A stretch of 33,942 nt of DNA from an uncultured Bacteroidales bacterium (GCA_905233405.1 CAJOEG010000017.1:1-33942), one strand, 5' to 3'. Counted from the stretch's first letter, positions 6,746 to 28,748 are shown. Numbers and translations are program-made. Notes: a model not told the origin generated them from the sequence alone.

Positions 6746-7090
6746 ATGCCAAGAAGTGTAAATGTAGTTGCCGCTAGAAACAGGAGAAGAAAAGTTCTTT
6801 CTCAGACTAGAGGTTATTTTGGAGCAAGAAGTAAGGTTTGGACCGTAGCAAAGAACGCATACGAAAAAGGTCTTGCTTATGCATACAGAGACAGAAAAAA
6901 CAAGAAGAGAGAATTCCGCGCATTGTGGATTCAGAGAATTAATGCTGGTGCTCGTCTAAATGGTTTGAGTTATTCTCAATTGATGGGTAAGCTTCATGCA
7001 GCAAATGTTGACATCAACCGTAAGGTTCTTGCCGACCTCGCTATGAACAACCCAGAAGCATTTGCAGCAATCTGCAACAAGGTAAAATAA
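6746..7090 (+). CDS. rplT: 50S ribosomal protein L20
   Basis: 114 aa with [18 protein letters not shown]...GYFGARS and [20 protein letters not shown]. Confidence 0.95.
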
Positions 7091-7120
7091 TTGATATTTT
7101 TGGAATAGGTGATATAATTA

Positions 7121-7148
7121 AGGTCGTCAGTTCCTGACGACCTTTTTT
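7121..7148 (+). terminator. Rho-independent terminator after rplT
   Basis: Perfect 10-bp stem AGGTCGTCAG / CTGACGACCT with a TTC loop, followed by a T run. Confidence 0.8.
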
Positions 7149-7452: not shown

Positions 7453-8520
7453 TCAATTCTCTATCGCTTTGTCAAATCCGACAACAGGAACCTCTCTTTC
7501 TTCGTATTCAAACAAAACTTTGGCAGGAATTTCGATTTTGCCGTGGTTTGGTCCACGAGAAATAAGCACGGCACCTTCTTTTTCGTAATCGTATGTGTAT
7601 AGATTGCCATTGTTGTCGCCAAATGTGTCAGGATCGCGGTAGTAAGTGCCTGAAAAACTTTTTTCTGAACTGGAGTTTGATTCTGTCACATACAAACAAC
7701 GTCCATACATCTCGATACTGATTTTGTAATCATCACCGTCAAACGAAATTGTCTTATTATTTATCGGCAACCATTTGTATAAACGGCTTTCGGCTTTTAT
7801 CACATCATCCAAATAAAATTTAACTTCAAACCACGCATTTCCCTTGCCGTCTGTAATAACATTTGCAGAATAATAGCCTTCTTCACCATATTCCTGACGG
7901 ATATATGTTCCTGAAACTTTAGTCATAGGAACGTTCGATGACAGCCTCTCAAAAGGTAGCCATGTGTCATTTTGCGGAGCGACGAACTTTTTGGAATTGT
8001 TGTCGAAGTTGTTTTTGAACCATTTCCATGTAACTTCCTTGCCGTCGTACTCACATTCGTGGTCAACATTGTCGGTTTCAAGATTGTACATCTGCACATC
8101 CGATGCAAAATGAGTTATCGAGCTATTCTCAATGACAGAATACGATGCAAAGAAAGCCCCTGTTCCAGCAGGTCCCGATGCGCATACCACATTCCCATTC
8201 ACCGAAACGAACGATTTCGACCAAGTTGTTGCAATGATTTCTAGCGAATCGCCTCCACGACAGAAAAAAGCACCGTTTTCGGCAACTATTTCTTTCAGCC
8301 ACAGCTCATTAATGCCATCACCGTCAAAATCGACAAGTCCATACTGATATATAGGACCATCACCTTCATTAATTTCATATACAGGGCATTCGTCGCTGAA
8401 CATCTGCATAATTTCGTCGGCATGCTGCGAATAGAAAATTTCGTCGGCGTTAAGGTTTACCTGTGCGTTTAGCACAACAGAAAAAGTAACAGAGATTACT
8501 ATAAAAAGTATTTTATTCAT
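7453..8520 (-). CDS. Hypothetical secreted protein (355 aa), last gene of the radical-SAM cluster
   Basis: Signal peptide MNKILFIVISVTFSVVLNAQ. Contains a DFDGDGINELW Ca-binding/FG-GAP-like motif. Starts 3 nt after the stop of the upstream gene. Confidence 0.75.
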   Translation of the reverse strand: MNKILFIVISVTFSVVLNAQVNLNADEIFYSQHADEIMQMFSDECPVYEINEGDGPIYQYGLVDFDGDGINELWLKEIVAENGAFFCRGGDSLEIIATTWSKSFVSVNGNVVCASGPAGTGAFFASYSVIENSSITHFASDVQMYNLETDNVDHECEYDGKEVTWKWFKNNFDNNSKKFVAPQNDTWLPFERLSSNVPMTKVSGTYIRQEYGEEGYYSANVITDGKGNAWFEVKFYLDDVIKAESRLYKWLPINNKTISFDGDDYKISIEMYGRCLYVTESNSSSEKSFSGTYYRDPDTFGDNNGNLYTYDYEKEGAVLISRGPNHGKIEIPAKVLFEYEEREVPVVGFDKAIEN

Positions 8521-8523
8521 AAT

Positions 8524-9018
8524 CTATTCTTCTTTAGAGCCTTCTTTTTGCGGTTTGCACAAATCGATTATAATCTTGTTTATCTCGTATGTAGGGTCGT
8601 AATCGGGTCCGGCCATATATCCGCTAGACCAGAAAAAGTTTTTCCCAAATTTTACATCCAACGACCAGCTGTCACCATCGAAAACGTCGGGGTTGGAGTA
8701 GGAATGTTCCCAATCCTGAACATTGGCCTTGGCAAGCATATCACCAATCTCTTCCAATTTTTCACGAGGCACATTGCTGACCGAATCAACCTTGCACTCC
8801 TCGTTAGGTAACAGAAAATTGCAATCGCGCACTATAGCAGACACGACGCTATCTTTGCACATTATTTCAAATTCCTTTGACATGCCGGAATATCCATTAT
8901 GTACTTTATAATGATAGTAAACAAGATCGCTACCTTTCAATTTGTATCTATCACTGTTAAAACAACAGCAGCAACAAAATATCAGTGCTGTTAAACTGAT
9001 AAAAATATTTCTTATCAT
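8524..9018 (-). CDS. Hypothetical exported protein or lipoprotein (164 aa) with a penta-cysteine run at the signal-peptide end
   Basis: N-terminus MIRNIFISLTALIFCCCCCFNSD. ATG start. No family recognised. Confidence 0.7.
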   Translation of the reverse strand: MIRNIFISLTALIFCCCCCFNSDRYKLKGSDLVYYHYKVHNGYSGMSKEFEIMCKDSVVSAIVRDCNFLLPNEECKVDSVSNVPREKLEEIGDMLAKANVQDWEHSYSNPDVFDGDSWSLDVKFGKNFFWSSGYMAGPDYDPTYEINKIIIDLCKPQKEGSKEE

Positions 9019-9094
9019 AAGAATGAAGTTTAAATTAATCGCAAATGTAAAGAAAATCGACGAATACCCAAAATCATAACTTTATTCCTCGTTT

Positions 9095-9706
9095 TTACCT
9101 TACTACATACTCAAACCTGTCGATTTGTGTAACGCCCATTTGCTGCAGCAGCCTAACGGAGCGGTCGCAGTCGTCGGTGGCATTGAAACCAGGGATTAGC
9201 GGTACGCGAACCATGATGCGTTCCGGACCTTTGGCAGAAATGAGCCAACGGAGATTTTGAAGGCTCTGCCGGTTGCTGCGTGTTGTGTATGCCTTGTAGA
9301 TGGACGGATTGGTATCCTTTATGTCGACAATAAAGTAGTCAATGATTTCGGAAGCCGCTTCGACCGCCGAACGCGGCACGGCAAGCGAAGTTTCGGCTGT
9401 AATTTTCCAGGCATCACCACAAAGTTTGCGAAATTCACGGATAAAATCAGTCCTAAGCAATGGTTCACCGCCGCCAAAGCAGATACCTCCACCAGTGTAA
9501 AGGAAATAAATGTTGTCGATGCGTACGTGGTCGAAAAGTGTCTGGGGTGTATAATGCGGAAGATTGTCCGTCTTCCCGAAACAGGATGGATTCAGGCAGT
9601 AACGGCAATGTAGCGGACATCCATGAAATGCCGCCAAAGTTGTAACTCCAGCACCGTCTATATTAATGCGATGCCTCGAAACTCCGATGAATGGCACTGC
9701 TTCCAA
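9095..9706 (-). CDS. Short radical SAM enzyme, glycyl-radical-activase-like (PflA/NrdG-type fold)
   Basis: 203 aa with IDGAGVTTLAAFHGCPLHCRYCLNP (CxxxCxxC cluster motif) and GGGEPLL (SAM-binding motif). There is no in-frame ATG, so the start is TTG at 9706 (or GTG at 9697), 3 nt after the TAG of the upstream small ORF. Confidence 0.85.
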   Translation of the reverse strand: MEAVPFIGVSRHRINIDGAGVTTLAAFHGCPLHCRYCLNPSCFGKTDNLPHYTPQTLFDHVRIDNIYFLYTGGGICFGGGEPLLRTDFIREFRKLCGDAWKITAETSLAVPRSAVEAASEIIDYFIVDIKDTNPSIYKAYTTRSNRQSLQNLRWLISAKGPERIMVRVPLIPGFNATDDCDRSVRLLQQMGVTQIDRFEYVVR

Positions 9707-9709
9707 AGA

Positions 9710-9862
9710 CTATTTCTTATTTTCGTCGGGATTTTCTGTTGGACTATTATATTCGGGAACCTTGCCCCTAAGGGGTATGTCCATATCGCGAGGTTCGATT
9801 ATAGGGTCAATTTCTGTTTTGGCAGAATCGATTTCTGGCACTTTTACAGGAACAATGCCCAT
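9710..9862 (-). CDS. Unlisted 50-aa Pro/Glu-rich ORF, or frame-shifted C-terminal tail of the upstream Cys-rich lipoprotein
   Basis: My translation is MGIVPVKVPEIDSAKTEIDPIIEPRDMDIPLRGKVPEYNSPTENPDENKK. The ATG lies 7 nt after the TGA of 9870..10211. It shares VPE and P(V/L)RGK motifs with that protein's tail. Confidence 0.4.
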   Translation of the reverse strand: MGIVPVKVPEIDSAKTEIDPIIEPRDMDIPLRGKVPEYNSPTENPDENKK

Positions 9863-9869
9863 AAGAGGT

Positions 9870-10211
9870 TCATTCTGGCACAGTGTCTATAGAGGTCTGG
9901 TGGGTTGTGTCGGGATCAACCATTTTGCCTCTAACTGGCACATCGCCCACAAGTTGATGACCTCCGCTATTACAAGCCGCTACGCTAAGCGTAATTCCCG
10001 CGATAGTTGCCACCTTGCCTAGAATGTTCATCTTGCCCTTGCGCGAAAGTTCCTGCTCGATGTATTTCACTTCGGCTTCGCAATGCGGACAGGTGCCGTT
10101 GCATTCGCCCTCGAAAGTACATTCTTCCTGCTCGAGCGGAATATTATTTTCGTCCGCAATGTTCTTGCGAATCTCTTTCAAGTATTTGCAGATATTTTTA
10201 CCGTTCTTCAT
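9870..10211 (-). CDS. Cys-rich domain protein fused to a lipoprotein-type signal peptide (radical-SAM-associated putative lipoprotein-like), paralog A
   Basis: 113 aa with the C31-x5-C37-x3-C41-x2-C44 motif (ECTFEGECNGTCPHCEAE). This is followed by KGKMNILGKVATIAGITLSVAAC|NSGG, which is a charged n-region, a hydrophobic core and a lipobox. Confidence 0.75.
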   Translation of the reverse strand: MKNGKNICKYLKEIRKNIADENNIPLEQEECTFEGECNGTCPHCEAEVKYIEQELSRKGKMNILGKVATIAGITLSVAACNSGGHQLVGDVPVRGKMVDPDTTHQTSIDTVPE

Positions 10212-10224
10212 GTGTTTTAGGTTT

Positions 10225-10512
10225 TTAAAAATATGATGCTAGCACATCGCCCGTAAGTTCTTCGTATTCGTCACATTTTTCCCATGCAAGAAAATCAGAT
10301 TCTCTTTCTTTGTAAACATTTAGTTTCTCTATTTTGCCTCGTTTTATAAGTTCTTCTTCAAGATATTTTACCTCTGCATCGCAATGCGGACAAGTACCGT
10401 TGCATTCCCCCTCGAAAGTACATTCTTCCTGCTGAAGCGGAATATTATTTTCGTCCGCAATGTTCTTGCGAACTTCTTTTAGATACTTGCAGATATTTTT
10501 ACCGTTGTTCAT
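10225..10512 (-). CDS. Cys-rich domain protein, soluble paralog B
   Basis: 95 aa. The first ~57 aa are nearly identical to paralog A. The C-terminus is acidic and unrelated (KERESDFLAWEKCDEYEELTGDVLASYF), with no hydrophobic segment. Confidence 0.75.
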   Translation of the reverse strand: MNNGKNICKYLKEVRKNIADENNIPLQQEECTFEGECNGTCPHCDAEVKYLEEELIKRGKIEKLNVYKERESDFLAWEKCDEYEELTGDVLASYF

Positions 10513-10546
10513 TGGCGTTGGGTTTCTAATTTTGAAATGTGTTTTG

Positions 10547-10577
10547 CAAAAATATGCATTTTCATAAAAACAGCAAA
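10547..10577 (-). promoter_or_regulatory. Bacteroidota sigma-A-type promoter for the Cys-rich/radical-SAM cluster
   Basis: On the minus strand: TTTG (10574-10577), a 19-nt spacer, then TATTTTTG (10547-10554). This lies about 35 nt upstream of the ATG at 10512. Confidence 0.45.
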
Positions 10578-10607
10578 AAAGAGCCTGCGGGGAACAGACT
10601 CTTTTTT
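10575..10607 (-). terminator. Terminator-like hairpin closing the upstream YtrA/ABC/GIN operon (symmetrical A/T flanks)
   Basis: AAAAAAGAGCCTG-CGGGGAA-CAGACTCTTTTTT, with one mismatch in the stem and T runs on both strands. Confidence 0.5.
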
Positions 10608-10630
10608 GAAGTAAGTAAATTTATGTTATC

Positions 10631-17309: not shown

Positions 17310-17342
17310 TTTGTTGCTGTTGAAAAAAATTAACTACCTTTG
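17310..17342 (+). promoter_or_regulatory. Promoter of the ferredoxin gene
   Basis: TTTG (17310-17313), a 21-nt spacer, then TACCTTTG (17335-17342), 44 nt upstream of the ATG. Confidence 0.45.
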
Positions 17343-17386
17343 CCAGCGAAATTTTCAGTATTAATTAATATTTAAATTTTAAAGAA

Positions 17387-17554
17387 ATGGCTTATAAAAT
17401 CAGTAACGACTGCGTATCTTGCGGTACATGCGCTGGCGAATGCCCAACAGGCGCTATCAGCGAAGGAACTCCTTATGTAATCAATGCTAACGAATGTGTA
17501 TCTTGCGGTACTTGCGCAGGTGCATGCCCAGTTGGTGCAATTTCAGAGGAATAA
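17387..17554 (+). CDS. 2x[4Fe-4S] clostridial-type ferredoxin (55 aa, below the ORF-track cutoff)
   Basis: My translation is MAYKISNDCVSCGTCAGECPTGAISEGTPYVINANECVSCGTCAGACPVGAISEE. It carries two CxxCxxCxxxCP motifs and is followed by a strong terminator. Confidence 0.9.
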   Translation: MAYKISNDCVSCGTCAGECPTGAISEGTPYVINANECVSCGTCAGACPVGAISEE

Positions 17555-17575
17555 TAGCAGTCTGAAAAAAGATTG

Positions 17576-17605
17576 ATAGGTTGCCGATTGGCAACCTATT
17601 TTTTT
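17576..17605 (+). terminator. Rho-independent terminator after the ferredoxin gene
   Basis: 10-bp stem ATAGGTTGCC / GGCAACCTAT with a GATT loop, followed by a T6 run. Confidence 0.8.
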
Positions 17606-17716
17606 GAATCCACTGGTCATTCCACAAGTCAGAACATACACGCGATACGAAACGGAGAGCGTTGTAATGTTCGACTATGCGGAATCTCCTAAAGAATAAT
17701 ATTAAACTAAATTTTT

Positions 17717-17905
17717 ATGCAGAAAACTTGTCCAGAATGTAACAAAACATTTGAATGCTCTCAAAGCGAAAACTGCTGGTGTACACGCATCACAATTCCA
17801 GAAGACGTAGCCAACTATTTGAGAAGCAAATACTTCGACTGTCTTTGCGAGGGCTGTATGACCAAAATTTTAAAAAACAAGGAAAAAATTTTGCAGGGTA
17901 AATAA
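17717..17905 (+). CDS. Cysteine-rich CWC-family small protein
   Basis: 62 aa with 8 Cys, in the pattern CPECNKTFEC...NCWC...CLCEGC that is characteristic of PF14375-type proteins. Confidence 0.7.
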   Translation: MQKTCPECNKTFECSQSENCWCTRITIPEDVANYLRSKYFDCLCEGCMTKILKNKEKILQGK

Positions 17906-17920
17906 AATGCACTACCTTTG
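17890..17920 (+). promoter_or_regulatory. Promoter of tRNA-Cys
   Basis: TTTG (17890-17893), a 19-nt spacer, then TACCTTTG (17913-17920). The box ends 11 nt before the mature tRNA 5' end. Confidence 0.5.
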
Positions 17921-17931
17921 CATCCACTTAA

Positions 17932-18002
17932 GGTACCTTGGCCGAGTGGTGAGGCACCAGTCTGCAAAACTGGGTACTGCAGTTCGATTCTGCAAGGTAC
18001 CT
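17932..18002 (+). tRNA. tRNA-Cys (GCA)
   Basis: 71-nt cloverleaf folded by hand. Acceptor GGTACCT/AGGTACC, anticodon stem CCAGT/ACTGG with loop CTGCAAA, T arm TGCAG-TTCGATT-CTGCA, discriminator U73. No encoded CCA. Confidence 0.9.
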
Positions 18003-18039: not shown

Positions 18040-18351
18040 TTAAAACACAGCTGCAATTTTTTGTATTCCTTTTAGCATATCAGTAAGCGATTTATCTTTT
18101 CGCGCTGTTTGCATATTGTATTTTGTTTGTAGATACATTAGAGAATCTGCTGGCACATCAAGAACCGCTTCAAACATTAAGGCAGTTTTTGCTGTAAGTG
18201 GACGATGCCCATTTAGTATTTCATTTACAACAGAATAAGTTAGTCCCATACTTTCTGCCAATTGACGCTGACTGATGCCACGATATTCTATTTCATCTTT
18301 CAGTACCTCTCCTGGATGTGTCGGGTATGCACCGTAACCTAAATTTCCCAT
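18040..18351 (-). CDS. higA: HigA-family antitoxin (XRE-type HTH)
   Basis: 103 aa with THPGEVLKDEIEYRGISQRQLAESMGLTYSVVNEILNGHRPLTAKTALMFEAVL. Starts 11 nt downstream of the toxin gene. Confidence 0.85.
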   Translation of the reverse strand: MGNLGYGAYPTHPGEVLKDEIEYRGISQRQLAESMGLTYSVVNEILNGHRPLTAKTALMFEAVLDVPADSLMYLQTKYNMQTARKDKSLTDMLKGIQKIAAVF

Positions 18352-18362
18352 TTTTTCCTCCT

Positions 18363-18671
18363 TTATTTATAATGGTTTGACAATTCTATTATATTGCAGA
18401 TGGTAATTCCGTCTTTTTCTGATGACTTAAATTCTATCCTATACTGGTCATTAACGCGCACCGATTCAAATCCTTCCTTGTCACCTATCAGATTTTCGTA
18501 ATGCAAGGCTTGATAGCGATATAAGTCAGTAGTTTTGTCAACAGAATCGAGAATATTTATTACGCGAATGTATTTCTTCACTATATGGGGTTGATAGCGA
18601 TGTTGTTTATCGTTTGCCTTGCCATGATAGAATAATTCGCGCAGATATTCTTTTTCAAATTTTATATCCAT
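18363..18671 (-). CDS. higB: HigB-like toxin (RelE/ParE superfamily, plasmid-maintenance-killer type)
   Basis: 102 aa with C-terminal ...LIGDKEGFESVRVNDQYRIEFK...ICNIIELSNHY. The toxin-first gene order is typical of higBA. Confidence 0.75.
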   Translation of the reverse strand: MDIKFEKEYLRELFYHGKANDKQHRYQPHIVKKYIRVINILDSVDKTTDLYRYQALHYENLIGDKEGFESVRVNDQYRIEFKSSEKDGITICNIIELSNHYK

Positions 18672-23184: not shown

Positions 23185-26100
23185 CTAGAAATCGAGGCTT
23201 AGCGACAAGTAGAACATCATCTTCTGAATTTCGCCGTTGCTGATACCCCAAGCCCAGTCAGCACGGATGAAATAACCGAAAAGTTTGCTCCTCACCCCTA
23301 CTCCATATCCAGCAACCAAAGGATTGTTTCTGTTGTTCAATATAACAGTTACAGGATATTGCTCGTGATAGTCGTTTTCGTAGGCATTGTTTCCACCATA
23401 CGGATTCAAGCCGCTCCAAGCCATTCCAGCGTCGAAGAAACCAACTACTTGGAAGTTCTTTAGAAACTCATTATTTATAGGTTTACGGCTGAAATATGAA
23501 ATTACAGGAAAACGAAGTTCAAAATTGGTCACTGCAAAGTTGGTTCCGTTGCGAATGTTCTGGCTAAAACCGCGAAGATTGGTCTGCTTGATATACATAA
23601 TTTATTTCCGGGTCAATCTTGATGTTGGTATTGAACATTTGCTGCCGTGGCACTACGTTTAACCAGTTGTCGATTCCACCTAGATAGTATATCAGTTTTG
23701 CATTGCCAAACGATGCACTGGCTGCTGCCCTGAACGCAAAAATCAACGAGCGATGTATTGGCTGGTAGTAGCGGAAGTCAGCACCTACAACTTCCATATC
23801 GGTCTTTTTCTTGTCGAACTGCATAAAGGCCTCGGCAAAAACCTTGAACCTTATGCCTGATAATATATTGGTTGCCAATTCCTTGCTATTGTCAAAAATG
23901 TATTCCGCCTTAATGCTTCCCCAATAGTCGTATGTATCGGGCTTTTCAAGTGTGTTTAAATCGGTTGACAGGTAAACGTCCCTATTTTGCCTGATGTTGG
24001 CGGTAAACTGCATTGCATCGACCTGCGAGAACGGATAGCGAAGTATGTAGAATGCCTCGTGGGTGAACGATTTTGTGAAGTTGTTTTCAAGGTCGGAAAC
24101 TGCCTGACGGTGCAAGACCAATTGTCTGTTCCATCTGTGCTTAAGATTTTCAATAGTAAGCAAATATTCGTTTCCATCCATACCAACATCGAAACGGAAA
24201 CCTGCACTAATGCGGTAGTCTTCAAACAAATCGGATGTACCTACCTTGAATATAAGATTAAACCCAGGATTGAAGTAGAATGCACTGCCTGTGTATTTCT
24301 GGTACGAGTTGAACAGATAACTGAAATCGACCTGTGTCATAAGGTAGTTGGTGTAGAAAGTGGTATGATATTTTGATGTACGCACTTTCTTTACCTCTTT
24401 GTTATCCTGTGACTTCTGAACTATTTTTTCCACCACTTCTGGCTCAAAGGAATAATCGCTGATATTTATTTCGTTGCCGTTAGCATTTTCAACTGGCATT
24501 TCGTAGTTGGATTCCTCGTTCCGCTTTTTTTCGGTTGCCTCGAAAAGATTTCTGTTTACAGTATTCGCTATTTCTGAAATTTGTTCCTCTGGACTTTCTT
24601 TCTTCAGTATTCGGAACTTTTTTTCGTCGCGATAACTTACACCAATATTGTTTGAAAACTTGTCGTAACCGGCATTCTGTATGTTGTAGCGGTAGTTTGA
24701 AAGTTGTGCTGTATGATATGTGTACGAATAATGCGTAGTGGTATCAATGAAACTTATTGTCGAATCAAGTTTTGTGGTGTAAAGGTTTTTGTTTCCGTTT
24801 TTGTCGGAAATGAAGAAATAGTCTTCGCCCAACTTGAACGGCATTGTCTCCGAAGCATCTGGCGTTTCGGTTACACGGCTGATTGACTTGCTTGCAATGT
24901 CGTAAACATAAATGTCGGTAAAGTCTTGTGTATAAACTGAATTATCCTTATTTGAACCGATTTTTTCTTCGTCACGGTTTGAAGCGAATACAATCTGTTT
25001 CGACTTGTTAATGTACAACGGTTCGTAGTCATCGGCCTCATCGTTGGTGATATTCTCGATTGTATTTCCAGCAATATTGAATATGAAAATGTCCGACTGT
25101 CCGTTGTTGAAGCCAGCAATTACAAGGCTTTGACCGTCGTTAGAATAGTCAAACGAATTTATCTTTTCCATCGACGGCATCTGGATTTCGTTCTTTTTCT
25201 TGGTTTCAAACTGATAGGTGGTGTAGTATATTTCACCTTTCTTTTCAATCATAAAGCCGAGCATTTTCCCAGATGGATGCCACCTTACCACTGGATAAGT
25301 GTTGTCGATAATCTGGTCAAGTTTGTGCTCACGACGGAATATAGTCTTGCGCTTTCCTGTGCCGAAATCGTATGTTTTTATCCAGTATTTGCCAAACTTA
25401 TTTTCGCTCCAAGCCATCATATCTGTATTTGAATTGTACTGTGCCTGTGCGTAAGTGACATTTTTACGGCTTCGTTTCAGCACATCCTTGCCCTGCGGTT
25501 CATCGGCGGTGGCATTGAAATCCTCGTACTGTGTCTTGTAATATTCGGTCCAGTTTTCTTGCAGTGTCTTCAGATTTGCACCAAGCACATACATAAATGC
25601 ACTTTCCACGCTTTTGGTTATTCTTGTGAGGTACACAATGTTGGAAATCACCTGTGAACCATAGATTTTTGCCACATAGTTCCATATTGCAAAGCCCATT
25701 GTTTCGGCATCGTTTCCCGATAACTGGTTGATGTTGTTGAATTTATTTGACAGCGCATAAACCTTATTTAAGTTGTCGGCATCCGAATCCCAGTCACGCG
25801 AAAGGTAGGCGACAAGTCCGCTAGTGTACCATTCTGGCATTCCGATGAGGGTATTGTTGGCAATCTTGTTCTTTATGTTTGAACCGTAGATTATTTCGTT
25901 GAGGATAATGCTTGAAATTGCCGCCACAACTTGCTCGCGGAACTTTTGCACTGGTCGAGCATAGGTGTTTGCGACTTTCCTTGAGTGTGCCGCCGATGTT
26001 GTATTCGTCGGCATCGGTGTTTAGACCTATGTTGCTCTGCCTAAAGTCGGAAAGGTTCTGGAACATTACCAATATCATTCGCTTTTCGAGTTTGTGGTCG

Positions 26101-27320: not shown

Positions 27321-28748
27321 CTACATCTTCAGTCTCTTTTCAATCTCGTCAAGGTCGTGCTTAAAGTTCTTGTCAGTCTCGATGAGATTGTTTACGGTCT
27401 TGCAAGCGTGGAGTACAGTGGCGTGGTCCTTGTTGCCTATTGCATTGCCTATTACAGCAAGCGAACACTTTGTCATATTCTTTGCAAAGTACATTGCAAT
27501 CTGGCGGGCCTGAACGATTTCGCGTTTGCGTGTCTTGCTGCTGAGTACATCCACCGACATCGAGAAATAGTTGCAAACAACCTTCTGTATGTAGTCGATT
27601 GATATTTCGCGCTGTGTGTTCTTTACTAACTTGTCAATCATACCCTTGGCAAGTTCGAGGGTGATTTCCTTCTTGTTGAGGGTTGCCTGTGCAAGCAATG
27701 AAATGAGAGTGCCTTCAAGTTCGCGTACATTGTTTGTAACGTGCGATGCGATGTATTCGAGGATTTCTTCCTTAATTTCGATTCCGTCCTTGTAGGTCTT
27801 TCTCTTCAGTATCTTGATTCTAGTCTCGAAGTCCGGTTCCTGAAGGTCGGCTGCAAGTCCCCATTTGAATCTCGACAGCAAGCGTTCTTCCATTCCGTTC
27901 AAATCTACTGGTGCCTTATCCGACGTAAGAATGAGTTGCTTCTGATGTTGATGCAAATAGTTGAAAATCTGGAAGAAAACTTTCTGAGTACCTTCCTTGT
28001 CTGCGAAATACTGTACATCATCGAGGATAAGCACATCTATCATCTGGTAGAAATGGATGAAGTCGGTCTGGTTGTTGTCGCGGGTAGCCTGCATATACTG
28101 AGTCAGGAACTTGTTGGCATCGACATAAAGCACAACCTTGTCGGGGAAGTTTTTCTTCACCTCAAGTCCTATTGCGTTGGCAAGGTGAGTTTTACCGAGT
28201 CCCGAGCCGCCATAGATGAAAAGCGGGTTGAACGAAGTACCAGCAGGATTTCCTGCCACAGCAAAACCAGCGGCACGGGCGAGACGGTTGCATTCGCCTT
28301 CAACAAAGTTGTCGAATGTGTATTCCGGATTCAGATGCGGGTCTATCTGTATGGGTGTGTATCCAGGATAAGCATACGGATTTGGCGATTCGCCTTCTCC
28401 GAGCCTCGGTCTCTTAGGTATATTGGGGACATTTTTAGGAGTATCGTTTGACGGCATCTTTACAGTTACCGACTTCCCGATATTCTGGTCGCTACTTACC
28501 ACAACCCTGTAGTCCAACTTGGCATTCGGTCCGATAACCCTGTGCAACGTCATTGCCATCAGTTCAATGTAATGCTCTTCGAGGTATTCATAAAAGAATG
28601 TACTTGGCACCTGTATAGTCAACTGGTTGTCCTTGAGTTCGACTGGAACTATCGGAGCAAACCACGTATTGAAAGCCGCCTTTTGCAGATTCTCCTGAAT
28701 TATTTCCAAGCATTTCGCCCAAACCTCTTCGCAATTTTTTGTTGTCAT
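27321..28748 (-). CDS. dnaA: Chromosomal replication initiator protein DnaA
   Basis: 475 aa with Walker A GGSGLGKTHL, Walker B LILDDVQYF, sensor region SDKAP, and domain IV REIVQARQIAMYF...IGNKDHATVLHACK. Confidence 0.97.
   Translation of the reverse strand: MTTKNCEEVWAKCLEIIQENLQKAAFNTWFAPIVPVELKDNQLTIQVPSTFFYEYLEEHYIELMAMTLHRVIGPNAKLDYRVVVSSDQNIGKSVTVKMPSNDTPKNVPNIPKRPRLGEGESPNPYAYPGYTPIQIDPHLNPEYTFDNFVEGECNRLARAAGFAVAGNPAGTSFNPLFIYGGSGLGKTHLANAIGLEVKKNFPDKVVLYVDANKFLTQYMQATRDNNQTDFIHFYQMIDVLILDDVQYFADKEGTQKVFFQIFNYLHQHQKQLILTSDKAPVDLNGMEERLLSRFKWGLAADLQEPDFETRIKILKRKTYKDGIEIKEEILEYIASHVTNNVRELEGTLISLLAQATLNKKEITLELAKGMIDKLVKNTQREISIDYIQKVVCNYFSMSVDVLSSKTRKREIVQARQIAMYFAKNMTKCSLAVIGNAIGNKDHATVLHACKTVNNLIETDKNFKHDLDEIEKRLKM

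Follow-up and report, generated by a model that had tools for sequence, protein, structure and literature searches.

A radical SAM enzyme encoded beside tandem five-cysteine partner proteins in uncultured Bacteroidales

The pyruvate formate-lyase activating enzyme (PFL-AE, PflA), which serves a glycyl-radical enzyme (GRE), is a radical S-adenosylmethionine (SAM) enzyme with an open minimal barrel that is adapted to protein substrates, and it acts on a protein loop. Radical SAM modification of a protein can also take place in the cytoplasm ahead of Sec export, as with the anaerobic sulfatase-maturating enzymes (anSME). Bacteroidales dominate gut and rumen communities and rely on TonB-powered outer-membrane transport. 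In a stretch of 33,942 nucleotides (nt) from an uncultured Bacteroidales bacterium (CAJOEG010000017.1:1-33942; hereafter the window, to whose full length all positions refer), a radical SAM enzyme of 203 amino acids (aa) is encoded together with two tandem genes, paralog B and paralog A, for proteins that share an N-terminal five-Cys domain (the N-domain). The conserved unit is the radical SAM enzyme plus one or more Cys-domain proteins, in the window a three-gene module of B, A and the enzyme gene. This module is the window's single copy of a two-component system conserved in Bacteroidales, in which the radical SAM enzyme has dedicated protein partners, the tandem five-Cys paralogs. A full-text search of the literature found no description of a radical SAM enzyme paired with a five-Cys domain; the radical SAM enzyme mentioned in a preprint on Porphyromonas gingivalis TonB is unrelated.

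Relatives of the locus were collected from GTDB by scanning a single genome for each species with an alignment of the radical SAM enzyme as the seed. The scan returned 80 loci, all of them from uncultured rumen or gut Bacteroidales, with enzyme identities of 53-86%. When the ±6 kb around each enzyme gene were searched by tblastn and by a profile hidden Markov model (HMM) of the Cys domain, each method found at least one N-domain gene in 69 of the 80 species-level loci. Among the 11 loci with no match, the enzyme gene lies within ~500 nt of a contig end in seven; as these are contig-edge cases, the rate among informative loci is 69/73 (~95%). The N-domain copies number 97 in total, with one to five at each locus that has any. 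They are found either upstream or downstream of the enzyme gene; nearly all share its strand, and the distance is often only 4-40 nt. When five Cys-domain proteins (P0196, P0266, P0225, P0299 and P0356) were taken as starting points for reverse look-ups, a radical SAM enzyme of this type was adjacent in 5/5, and behind it came arrays of as many as four paralogs. The genetic linkage is independent of gene order. Both directions of search support the suggestion, made in a preliminary description of this DNA, that the Cys-rich proteins are substrates or partners of the enzyme.

The enzyme belongs to the radical SAM superfamily (PF04055, 63.6 bits against a cut-off of 29.5) and shares with PflA and the other GRE activases (TIGR02493, TIGR02494) the CX3CX2C motif, the GGE SAM motif and an N-terminal DGxG loop. 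The cluster cysteines C30, C34 and C37 (GCPLHCRYC) are invariant in 89 sequences; the GGGEP SAM-binding motif (FGGGEPLL in the window) is also invariant, and the N-terminal sequence MEAVPFIG is conserved. A sequence search of the PDB returned PflA (E=1e-15). In the AlphaFold2 (AF2) model, with a predicted local distance difference test (pLDDT) score of 91.4, alternating strand and helix elements form a partial (beta/alpha)6 barrel. Its top Foldseek matches are the PFL-AE structures 3CB8, which contains a peptide substrate, and 3C8F (template modelling (TM) score 0.80-0.83, E 7e-14 to 1e-13). The next family follows at E 2e-7, so that the E-value of PFL-AE is better by six to seven orders of magnitude than those of BlsE, the sactipeptide maturases, the viperins and QueE. 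With 3C8F the enzyme shares the same minimal partial-barrel fold at a TM score of 0.83 and 23% identity.

The top HMM matches are all GRE activases as well, each of them below its curated NCBIfam cut-off: TIGR02494 (PFLE_PFLC) scores 123.4 bits against 174.35, TIGR02493 (PflA) 91.9 against 231.75, NrdG 21 against 126 and NrdG2 48.5 against 131, while the QueE models score 24-30 bits against cut-offs of 260-300. Three relatives of the enzyme likewise fall below the activase cut-offs. With every score below its cut-off, the enzyme is no ortholog of PflA, NrdG or QueE, an identity that the preliminary description had named as fatal to its own proposal. Its assignment of the short enzyme to the activase type holds for the PFL-AE-like fold (TM 0.83) and fails at every activase cut-off. 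The differences from the activases are several. The enzyme is ~40 residues shorter than PflA and has DGxGVT in place of DGPGIR; it lacks a ferredoxin insert, as its TIGR02494 alignment leaves unmatched the profile positions ~45-105, which are the ~55-residue ferredoxin insert of that activase group. It has three extra cysteines, C42, C76 (directly ahead of the GGE motif) and C96, conserved in 89%, 91% and 98% of the 89 orthologs, and its partners are small exported TonB-like proteins rather than a GRE. No GRE was found among the large open reading frames (ORFs) of the window, in agreement with the preliminary description, or in the annotated neighbourhoods of relatives that were fetched, and the RVxG[FYW] motif does not occur in the conserved partner proteins. 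A SPASM/twitch domain is absent, the chain ending at residue 203 with the core barrel. Neither the window enzyme nor its relatives match a SPASM-type radical SAM model at the curated cut-off; SPASM-family HMMs match only the N-terminal cluster region (E ~0.01). A role in anti-phage defence was considered and set aside, PADLOC giving only a trivial viperin match to the enzyme (E 0.007).

The conserved part of the partner proteins spans ~60 residues. Within it C8, C31, C37, C41, C44, G39, T40 and P42 are invariant, and G35 is invariant in the locus-derived set and present in at least 90% of 147 representatives; all invariant columns lie in residues 1-62, and overall column identity is 10%. An exhaustive HMM search gathered 2,940 clusters at 50% identity (2,606 at E<=1e-10), always with the domain at the N-terminus, and no Pfam or NCBIfam model matches it. 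The AF2 model of paralog B shows a helix (residues 3-21), a Cys-bearing loop (22-41) and a second helix (42-58), with pLDDT values mostly of ~73-86, falling to 67 in residues 31-40 of the Cys loop. A PDB search with the sequence profile of the domain gave only zinc-ribbon and ferredoxin fragments at E ~0.3; this weak similarity and the C-P-x-C knuckle suggest a metal site. The domain is probably cytoplasmic. It is followed by a basic stretch and a hydrophobic segment in 240/240 sampled members; the end of this segment is a lipobox-like Cys in 113 members, A-x-A in 78 and some other sequence in 49. With these endings it resembles a Sec or lipoprotein signal peptide placed after a cytoplasmic domain. 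The remainder of the protein is hypervariable: TonB_C is present in 65 of the 147 representatives and CarbopepD_reg_2 in 29, and no domain is recognisable in the others. Database names are 'energy transducer TonB' for the long forms and 'hypothetical' for other members. Paralog B is atypical in having no hydrophobic segment, and in the window's A the exported part amounts to a short acidic tail in which L-x-G-x-V-P motifs are repeated.

The C-terminal parts of the partners thus recall the TonB family in the 44% of representatives that carry TonB_C, and TonB7 and TonB11 of Bacteroides thetaiotaomicron in the 20% with a CarboxypepD_reg domain, which is like the N-terminal extension (NTE) of SusC (PMC10350073). 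B. thetaiotaomicron has 11 TonB homologs, and most of the many TonB paralogs of Bacteroidales have no known role (PMC10350073). Unlike TonB, the partner family has a ~60-aa five-Cys domain ahead of the hydrophobic segment. The segment itself (for example, GKVATVAGLALGLA) contains no His and no S-x3-H, and mostly has a lipobox or A-x-A end. In the annotated neighbourhoods exbB and exbD are missing, the regular neighbour being the radical SAM enzyme, and TonB_C (PF03544/TIGR01352) was not found in the window's A or B or in the intact 171-aa form of A. The radical SAM/lipoprotein system of Bacteroides described by TIGR04134 likewise ties a putative Bacteroidales lipoprotein genetically to a radical SAM enzyme; unlike the present family, its model does not cover the five-Cys N-domain. 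One partner (L019) has a sub-threshold TIGR04134 match (26.8 bits against a cut-off of 39.8) confined to its CarboxypepD_reg-like C-terminal part. For the window's A and B, TIGR04134 gives no match at E<=0.1, TIGR04133 gave no match either, and the identification with that 'radical SAM-associated putative lipoprotein', which the preliminary description had offered, is dropped.

Two kinds of maturation system offer further parallels. As in anSME, cytoplasmic radical SAM modification ahead of Sec export is proposed here; unlike there, the C/S-x-P-x-R sulfatase motif and the SPASM/twitch domain are lacking. The long-leader maturases of ribosomally synthesised and post-translationally modified peptides (RiPPs) similarly combine one enzyme with several tandem precursors that have conserved N-terminal recognition and variable C-termini. 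In contrast to those systems, the putative leader here is a Cys-rich, folded domain with a Sec-type signal behind it, and there is neither a GG-cleaved leader nor a RiPP recognition element (RRE). The cysteine positions (C8/C31/C37/C41/C44) also resemble those of the zinc-binding anti-sigma (ZAS) protein RsrA (C11/C31/H37/C41/C44, as checked in the RsrA sequence). Homology to the ZAS family was rejected: hhalign against RsrA gave 0.2% probability, the Pfam zf-HC2 model did not match, and the likeness is one of pattern only. There is no sigma factor gene adjacent to the module.

Downstream of the domain, two short motifs recur. The motif [LIMVFY]xG[DE][VPIML] is present in 127/240 members, against 38.6±5.7 in shuffled sequences (maximum 56). 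Its copies in the window are LVGDVP, LMGIVP and LRGKVP in A and LTGDV in B, and in the DNA comparison of A with B this motif is the only block besides the N-domain that is still conserved (21 nt, 86%). A TonB-box-like C-terminal strand, GVKVIVR, is found in 44/240 members; the TonB box of SusC is DEVVVI (PMC10350073). Across the collected loci the extreme C-terminal motif of Cys-domain proteins reads ...(E/D/Q)GVKVIV(R/K) or ...GV(P/Q)(L/V)R(I/V)QY, and it resembles a TonB box or a terminal beta-strand. Its carriers (L017, L019, L021-L024, L032, L045, L047 and others) are paralogs with different middle domains. A second subgroup of Cys-domain proteins ends in NPLD(K/R)KAQ.

The limits of the module were drawn from the layout of the window and from the relatives. 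The features of the locus are as follows.

10574-10608, minus strand: intrinsic-terminator-like hairpin, a 15-pair stem plus T-run (inverted repeat with 14-nt arms, 93% complementary)
10547-10577, minus strand: Bacteroidetes-type promoter before gene B, TTTG-N19-TATTTTTG
10225-10512, minus strand: paralog B, 95 aa, with the five-Cys N-terminal domain, a soluble helical tail and the LTGDV motif
9870-10211, minus strand: 5' part of paralog A, 113 aa as read, with the five-Cys domain, a signal-peptide/lipobox-like segment (ITLSVAAC) and LVGDVP
9872-9874, minus strand: junction of a 14-nt deletion in gene A, a frameshift; the missing letters are ATCTCCCGAAATAC in conspecific contigs
9710-9862, minus strand: 3' remnant of gene A (a 50-aa Pro/Glu ORF), with the LMGIVP and LRGKVP motifs
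9095-9706, minus strand: radical SAM enzyme, 203 aa, TTG start, PFL-activase-like
9042-9072, minus strand: second Bacteroidetes-type promoter, a perfect TTTG-N19-TACATTTG, in the 76-nt gap between the enzyme gene and the 164-aa gene
8524-9018, minus strand: 164-aa exported protein, its signal region with a CCCCC run (LIFCCCCCF)
7453-8520, minus strand: 355-aa secreted protein, signal peptide ...VLNA/QV
7120-7144: terminator in the convergent gap
6746-7090: rplT, convergent to the cluster across the gap

The preliminary description had presented these genes as a single cluster of six minus-strand ORFs with successive gaps of 13, 7, 3, 76 and 3 nt. As a reading of the sequence it was accurate: the coordinates and gaps are correct, the promoter before gene B lies where it was placed, the hairpin (given there as 10575-10607) is found, the cluster does end in the convergent gap facing rplT, and the motifs CPLHCRYC and GGGEPLL of the enzyme and the CCCCC run of the 164-aa protein are all present. 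The single cluster did not survive. The pattern TTTG-N18-21-TAnnTTTG has six matches in the window where 1.1 are expected, a number reached in 0/100 shuffles, and the perfect match in the 76-nt gap would mark both the downstream limit of the module and the start of a separate unit of the 164-aa and 355-aa genes. Upstream, the hairpin is a good terminator candidate that would insulate the module from the GntR/DUF2807 operon.

Comparison with relatives places the boundaries at the same points. In two loci whose radical SAM enzyme is 96% identical (L082 and L083), DNA homology covers exactly window positions 10512-9095, that is, B, A and the enzyme gene, with a paralog B ortholog that is 88% identical; the flanking genes differ, and those after the enzyme are unrelated to the 164-aa and 355-aa genes. 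Among the 80 related loci the 355-aa protein is found in none and the 164-aa protein in one (L005, 47% identical, 3 kb from the enzyme gene), while the upstream DUF2807 and GntR genes and rplT are found in none. The neighbourhood conservation anticipated in the preliminary description therefore holds for the enzyme and the Cys-rich protein (69/80) and fails for the two secreted proteins (0/80 and 1/80), which have no Pfam, NCBIfam, PADLOC or PDB sequence match. Judged from these comparisons, they are unrelated lineage-specific neighbours, a separate pair with its own promoter. ORF clustering over the 80 loci, noisy from shadow ORFs, gave no third conserved gene. A UvrD-like helicase is adjacent in only 18 of the 80 loci. 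In a metagenome-assembled genome of a Bacteroides sp. (L089, 2196-9886), the enzyme and a Cys-domain TonB-like gene are flanked by a UvrD-type helicase (1060 aa) on one side and a PD-(D/E)XK nuclease (961 aa) on the other, the helicase and nuclease forming an AddAB-like pair.

The 50-aa Pro/Glu ORF, counted as a component of its own in the preliminary description, is by sequence comparison the tail of gene A and no independent gene. Homologs of paralog A have 166-181 aa, and their alignment spans the 113-aa ORF plus the 50-aa ORF, the latter aligning with the C-terminal third of 171-aa orthologs. Compared with L082, which encodes an intact 171-aa A, 14 nt are missing from the window at DTVPE|EPLMG. 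The same 14 nt are present in two conspecific metagenome contigs (L093 and L094), which have an identical enzyme and an intact 171-aa A and align over the 1,418-nt module without a mismatch and with one gap. Another conspecific scaffold (L092) has a run of 137 N (9699-9835) that stops exactly at the deletion junction. The deletion is therefore a strain polymorphism or an assembly artefact. The A/B tandem repeat adjoining it (182 nt, 85% identity) may make the site population-polymorphic or prone to mis-assembly. With the ORF recognised as a remnant of gene A, there are three genes here and not four. In several relatives (L084 5235-6944, L086 6001-6827 and L087 1387-2213) the ORF called for the N-domain is short (80-107 aa), and a separate ORF with TonB_C or CarbopepD_reg_2 follows at once. 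Splits of this kind, like that of the window, suggest recurrent frameshifts or indels in a low-complexity linker.

How the two components might work together can now be considered. We propose, tentatively and as something short of probable, that the radical SAM enzyme modifies the precursors of its partners before export, with the N-domain as a cytoplasmic leader or docking domain and the motif Gly as the best site. The N-domain, as a long leader or docking domain, would recruit the enzyme to the unfolded precursor in the cytoplasm, and the enzyme would abstract a hydrogen atom from the precursor backbone. The leading candidate site would be the conserved Gly of L-x-G-(D/E)-(V/P), with a residue in the Cys-rich loop as the alternative, and a stable modification would be installed ahead of Sec export and of signal-peptide cleavage. 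A single enzyme beside many tandem paralogs, constant at the N-terminus and variable at the C-terminus, would fit the classic maturase/precursor pattern. What is observed is the linkage of the genes, the architecture of the domains and the PFL-AE-like fold; the topology, cleavage, enzyme-substrate relation, site and chemistry are what we infer.

Several points weigh against precursor modification. The argument is built from sequence and model data. In four loci with full flanks the enzyme is present with no N-domain gene nearby. The L-x-G-(D/E) motif differs from RVxG[FYW], the glycyl-radical signature, and the enzyme is without the SPASM/twitch or RRE domains that are usual in peptide maturases. 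The N-domain model is moderately confident (pLDDT 69.5) and a Foldseek search of the PDB gave it no structural neighbour, so metal binding is suggested by the Cys pattern alone. The cleavage type assigned to the hydrophobic segment comes from regular expressions only. Lastly, the invariant folded five-Cys domain could equally be a stable subunit rather than a leader.

A stable subunit of this kind is possible, if on balance unlikely. The five-Cys domain would then be the cytoplasmic, metal- or Fe-S-binding part of inner-membrane proteins that are bitopic and TonB-like, and it would dock, tether or regulate the radical SAM enzyme. It might supply electrons or a bridging cluster together with Cys42, Cys76 and Cys96 of the enzyme, and periplasmic sensing, through TonB_C or SusC-NTE-like domains and the TonB-box-like C-terminus, could be coupled to action of the enzyme on another substrate, in a layout like that of anti-sigma or trans-envelope signalling. 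The co-occurrence of enzyme and N-domain serves this explanation as well as precursor modification, and it draws on the frequencies of TonB_C and CarbopepD_reg_2 with the 'energy transducer TonB' names, on the conservation (89-98%) of the three extra cysteines, on the RsrA-like cysteine positions and on the GVKVIVR C-terminus. A Cys domain acting in trans could make up for the ~55-residue ferredoxin insert that the enzyme does not have. Against a subunit speak the hhalign result with RsrA, the lack of a sigma factor or other conserved third gene, and the lack of a TonB-type S-x3-H in the hydrophobic segment, as read from the sequences. The lipobox-like or A-x-A ends found in 80% of members suggest that the segment is cleaved, and the N-domain would then be parted from the periplasmic region; in paralog B a membrane segment is missing altogether; and up to five paralogs per enzyme fit substrates more naturally.

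Broader in scope, and more doubtful, is the idea of a new class of radical SAM protein modification, in which a five-Cys leader precedes a Sec or lipoprotein signal and TonB-like and SusC-NTE-like periplasmic proteins are modified before export. The sites would be the glycine of L-x-G-(D/E)-(V/P) or the TonB-box-like C-terminal strand, and the chemistry a backbone radical, an epimerisation or a cross-link. That the enzyme is instead an ordinary GRE activase (PflA, NrdG or an orphan), with its substrate elsewhere and incidental Cys-rich neighbours, is very improbable. Its top HMM matches and its fold do point to GRE activases, one source labels a homolog (P0126) 'pyruvate formate lyase activating enzyme', and the four full-flank loci without an N-domain gene would be explained; yet the scores fall far below every equivalog cut-off, no GRE is found in the window or the fetched neighbourhoods, and ~95% adjacency despite variable gene order and unrelated flanks is unexpected for an incidental neighbour. 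Hardly credible is the six-gene operon of the preliminary description, in which enzyme-matured products would function in the envelope alongside the secreted proteins of 164 aa and 355 aa. All ORFs are co-directional with short gaps, no terminator separates the enzyme gene from the 164-aa gene, the arrangement is kept in the conspecific L093 and L094, and L005 retains a 164-aa homolog near its enzyme. These observations are outweighed by the counts of 0/80 and 1/80, by the unrelated genes that follow the enzyme even at 96% identity, and by the perfect promoter consensus in the 76-nt gap; with the 50-aa ORF a frameshift remnant as well, six components acting together are not borne out.

The analysis defines a large family by an unannotated five-Cys N-domain, and its genes almost always adjoin one for a dedicated radical SAM enzyme that is PFL-activase-like. 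Should that enzyme modify or control its partners, the substrates of the glycyl-radical-activase branch would extend beyond GREs, and an anaerobe-specific layer of envelope biology would come into view. If the proposed new class is real, outer-membrane transport in anaerobic gut bacteria would be linked with radical chemistry.

Elsewhere in the window, no Pfam model matches an 816-aa ORF (23564-26014, minus strand) at E<=1e-5. At 18040-18671 on the minus strand lie genes for a HigB-like toxin (102 aa) and an HTH_3 antitoxin (103 aa), according to the Pfam annotation of the conspecific scaffold L092. On the plus strand at 17310-18002, a Bacteroidetes-type promoter (17310-17342) is followed by genes for a 55-aa ferredoxin and a 62-aa Cys_rich_CWC (PF14375) protein, and a tRNA (17932-18002, plus strand) lies directly behind another promoter of this type at 17890-17920. 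The dnaA gene is found at 27321-28748 on the minus strand, with DnaA_N, Bac_DnaA and Bac_DnaA_C domains, and its presence places the window probably near the chromosomal replication origin.

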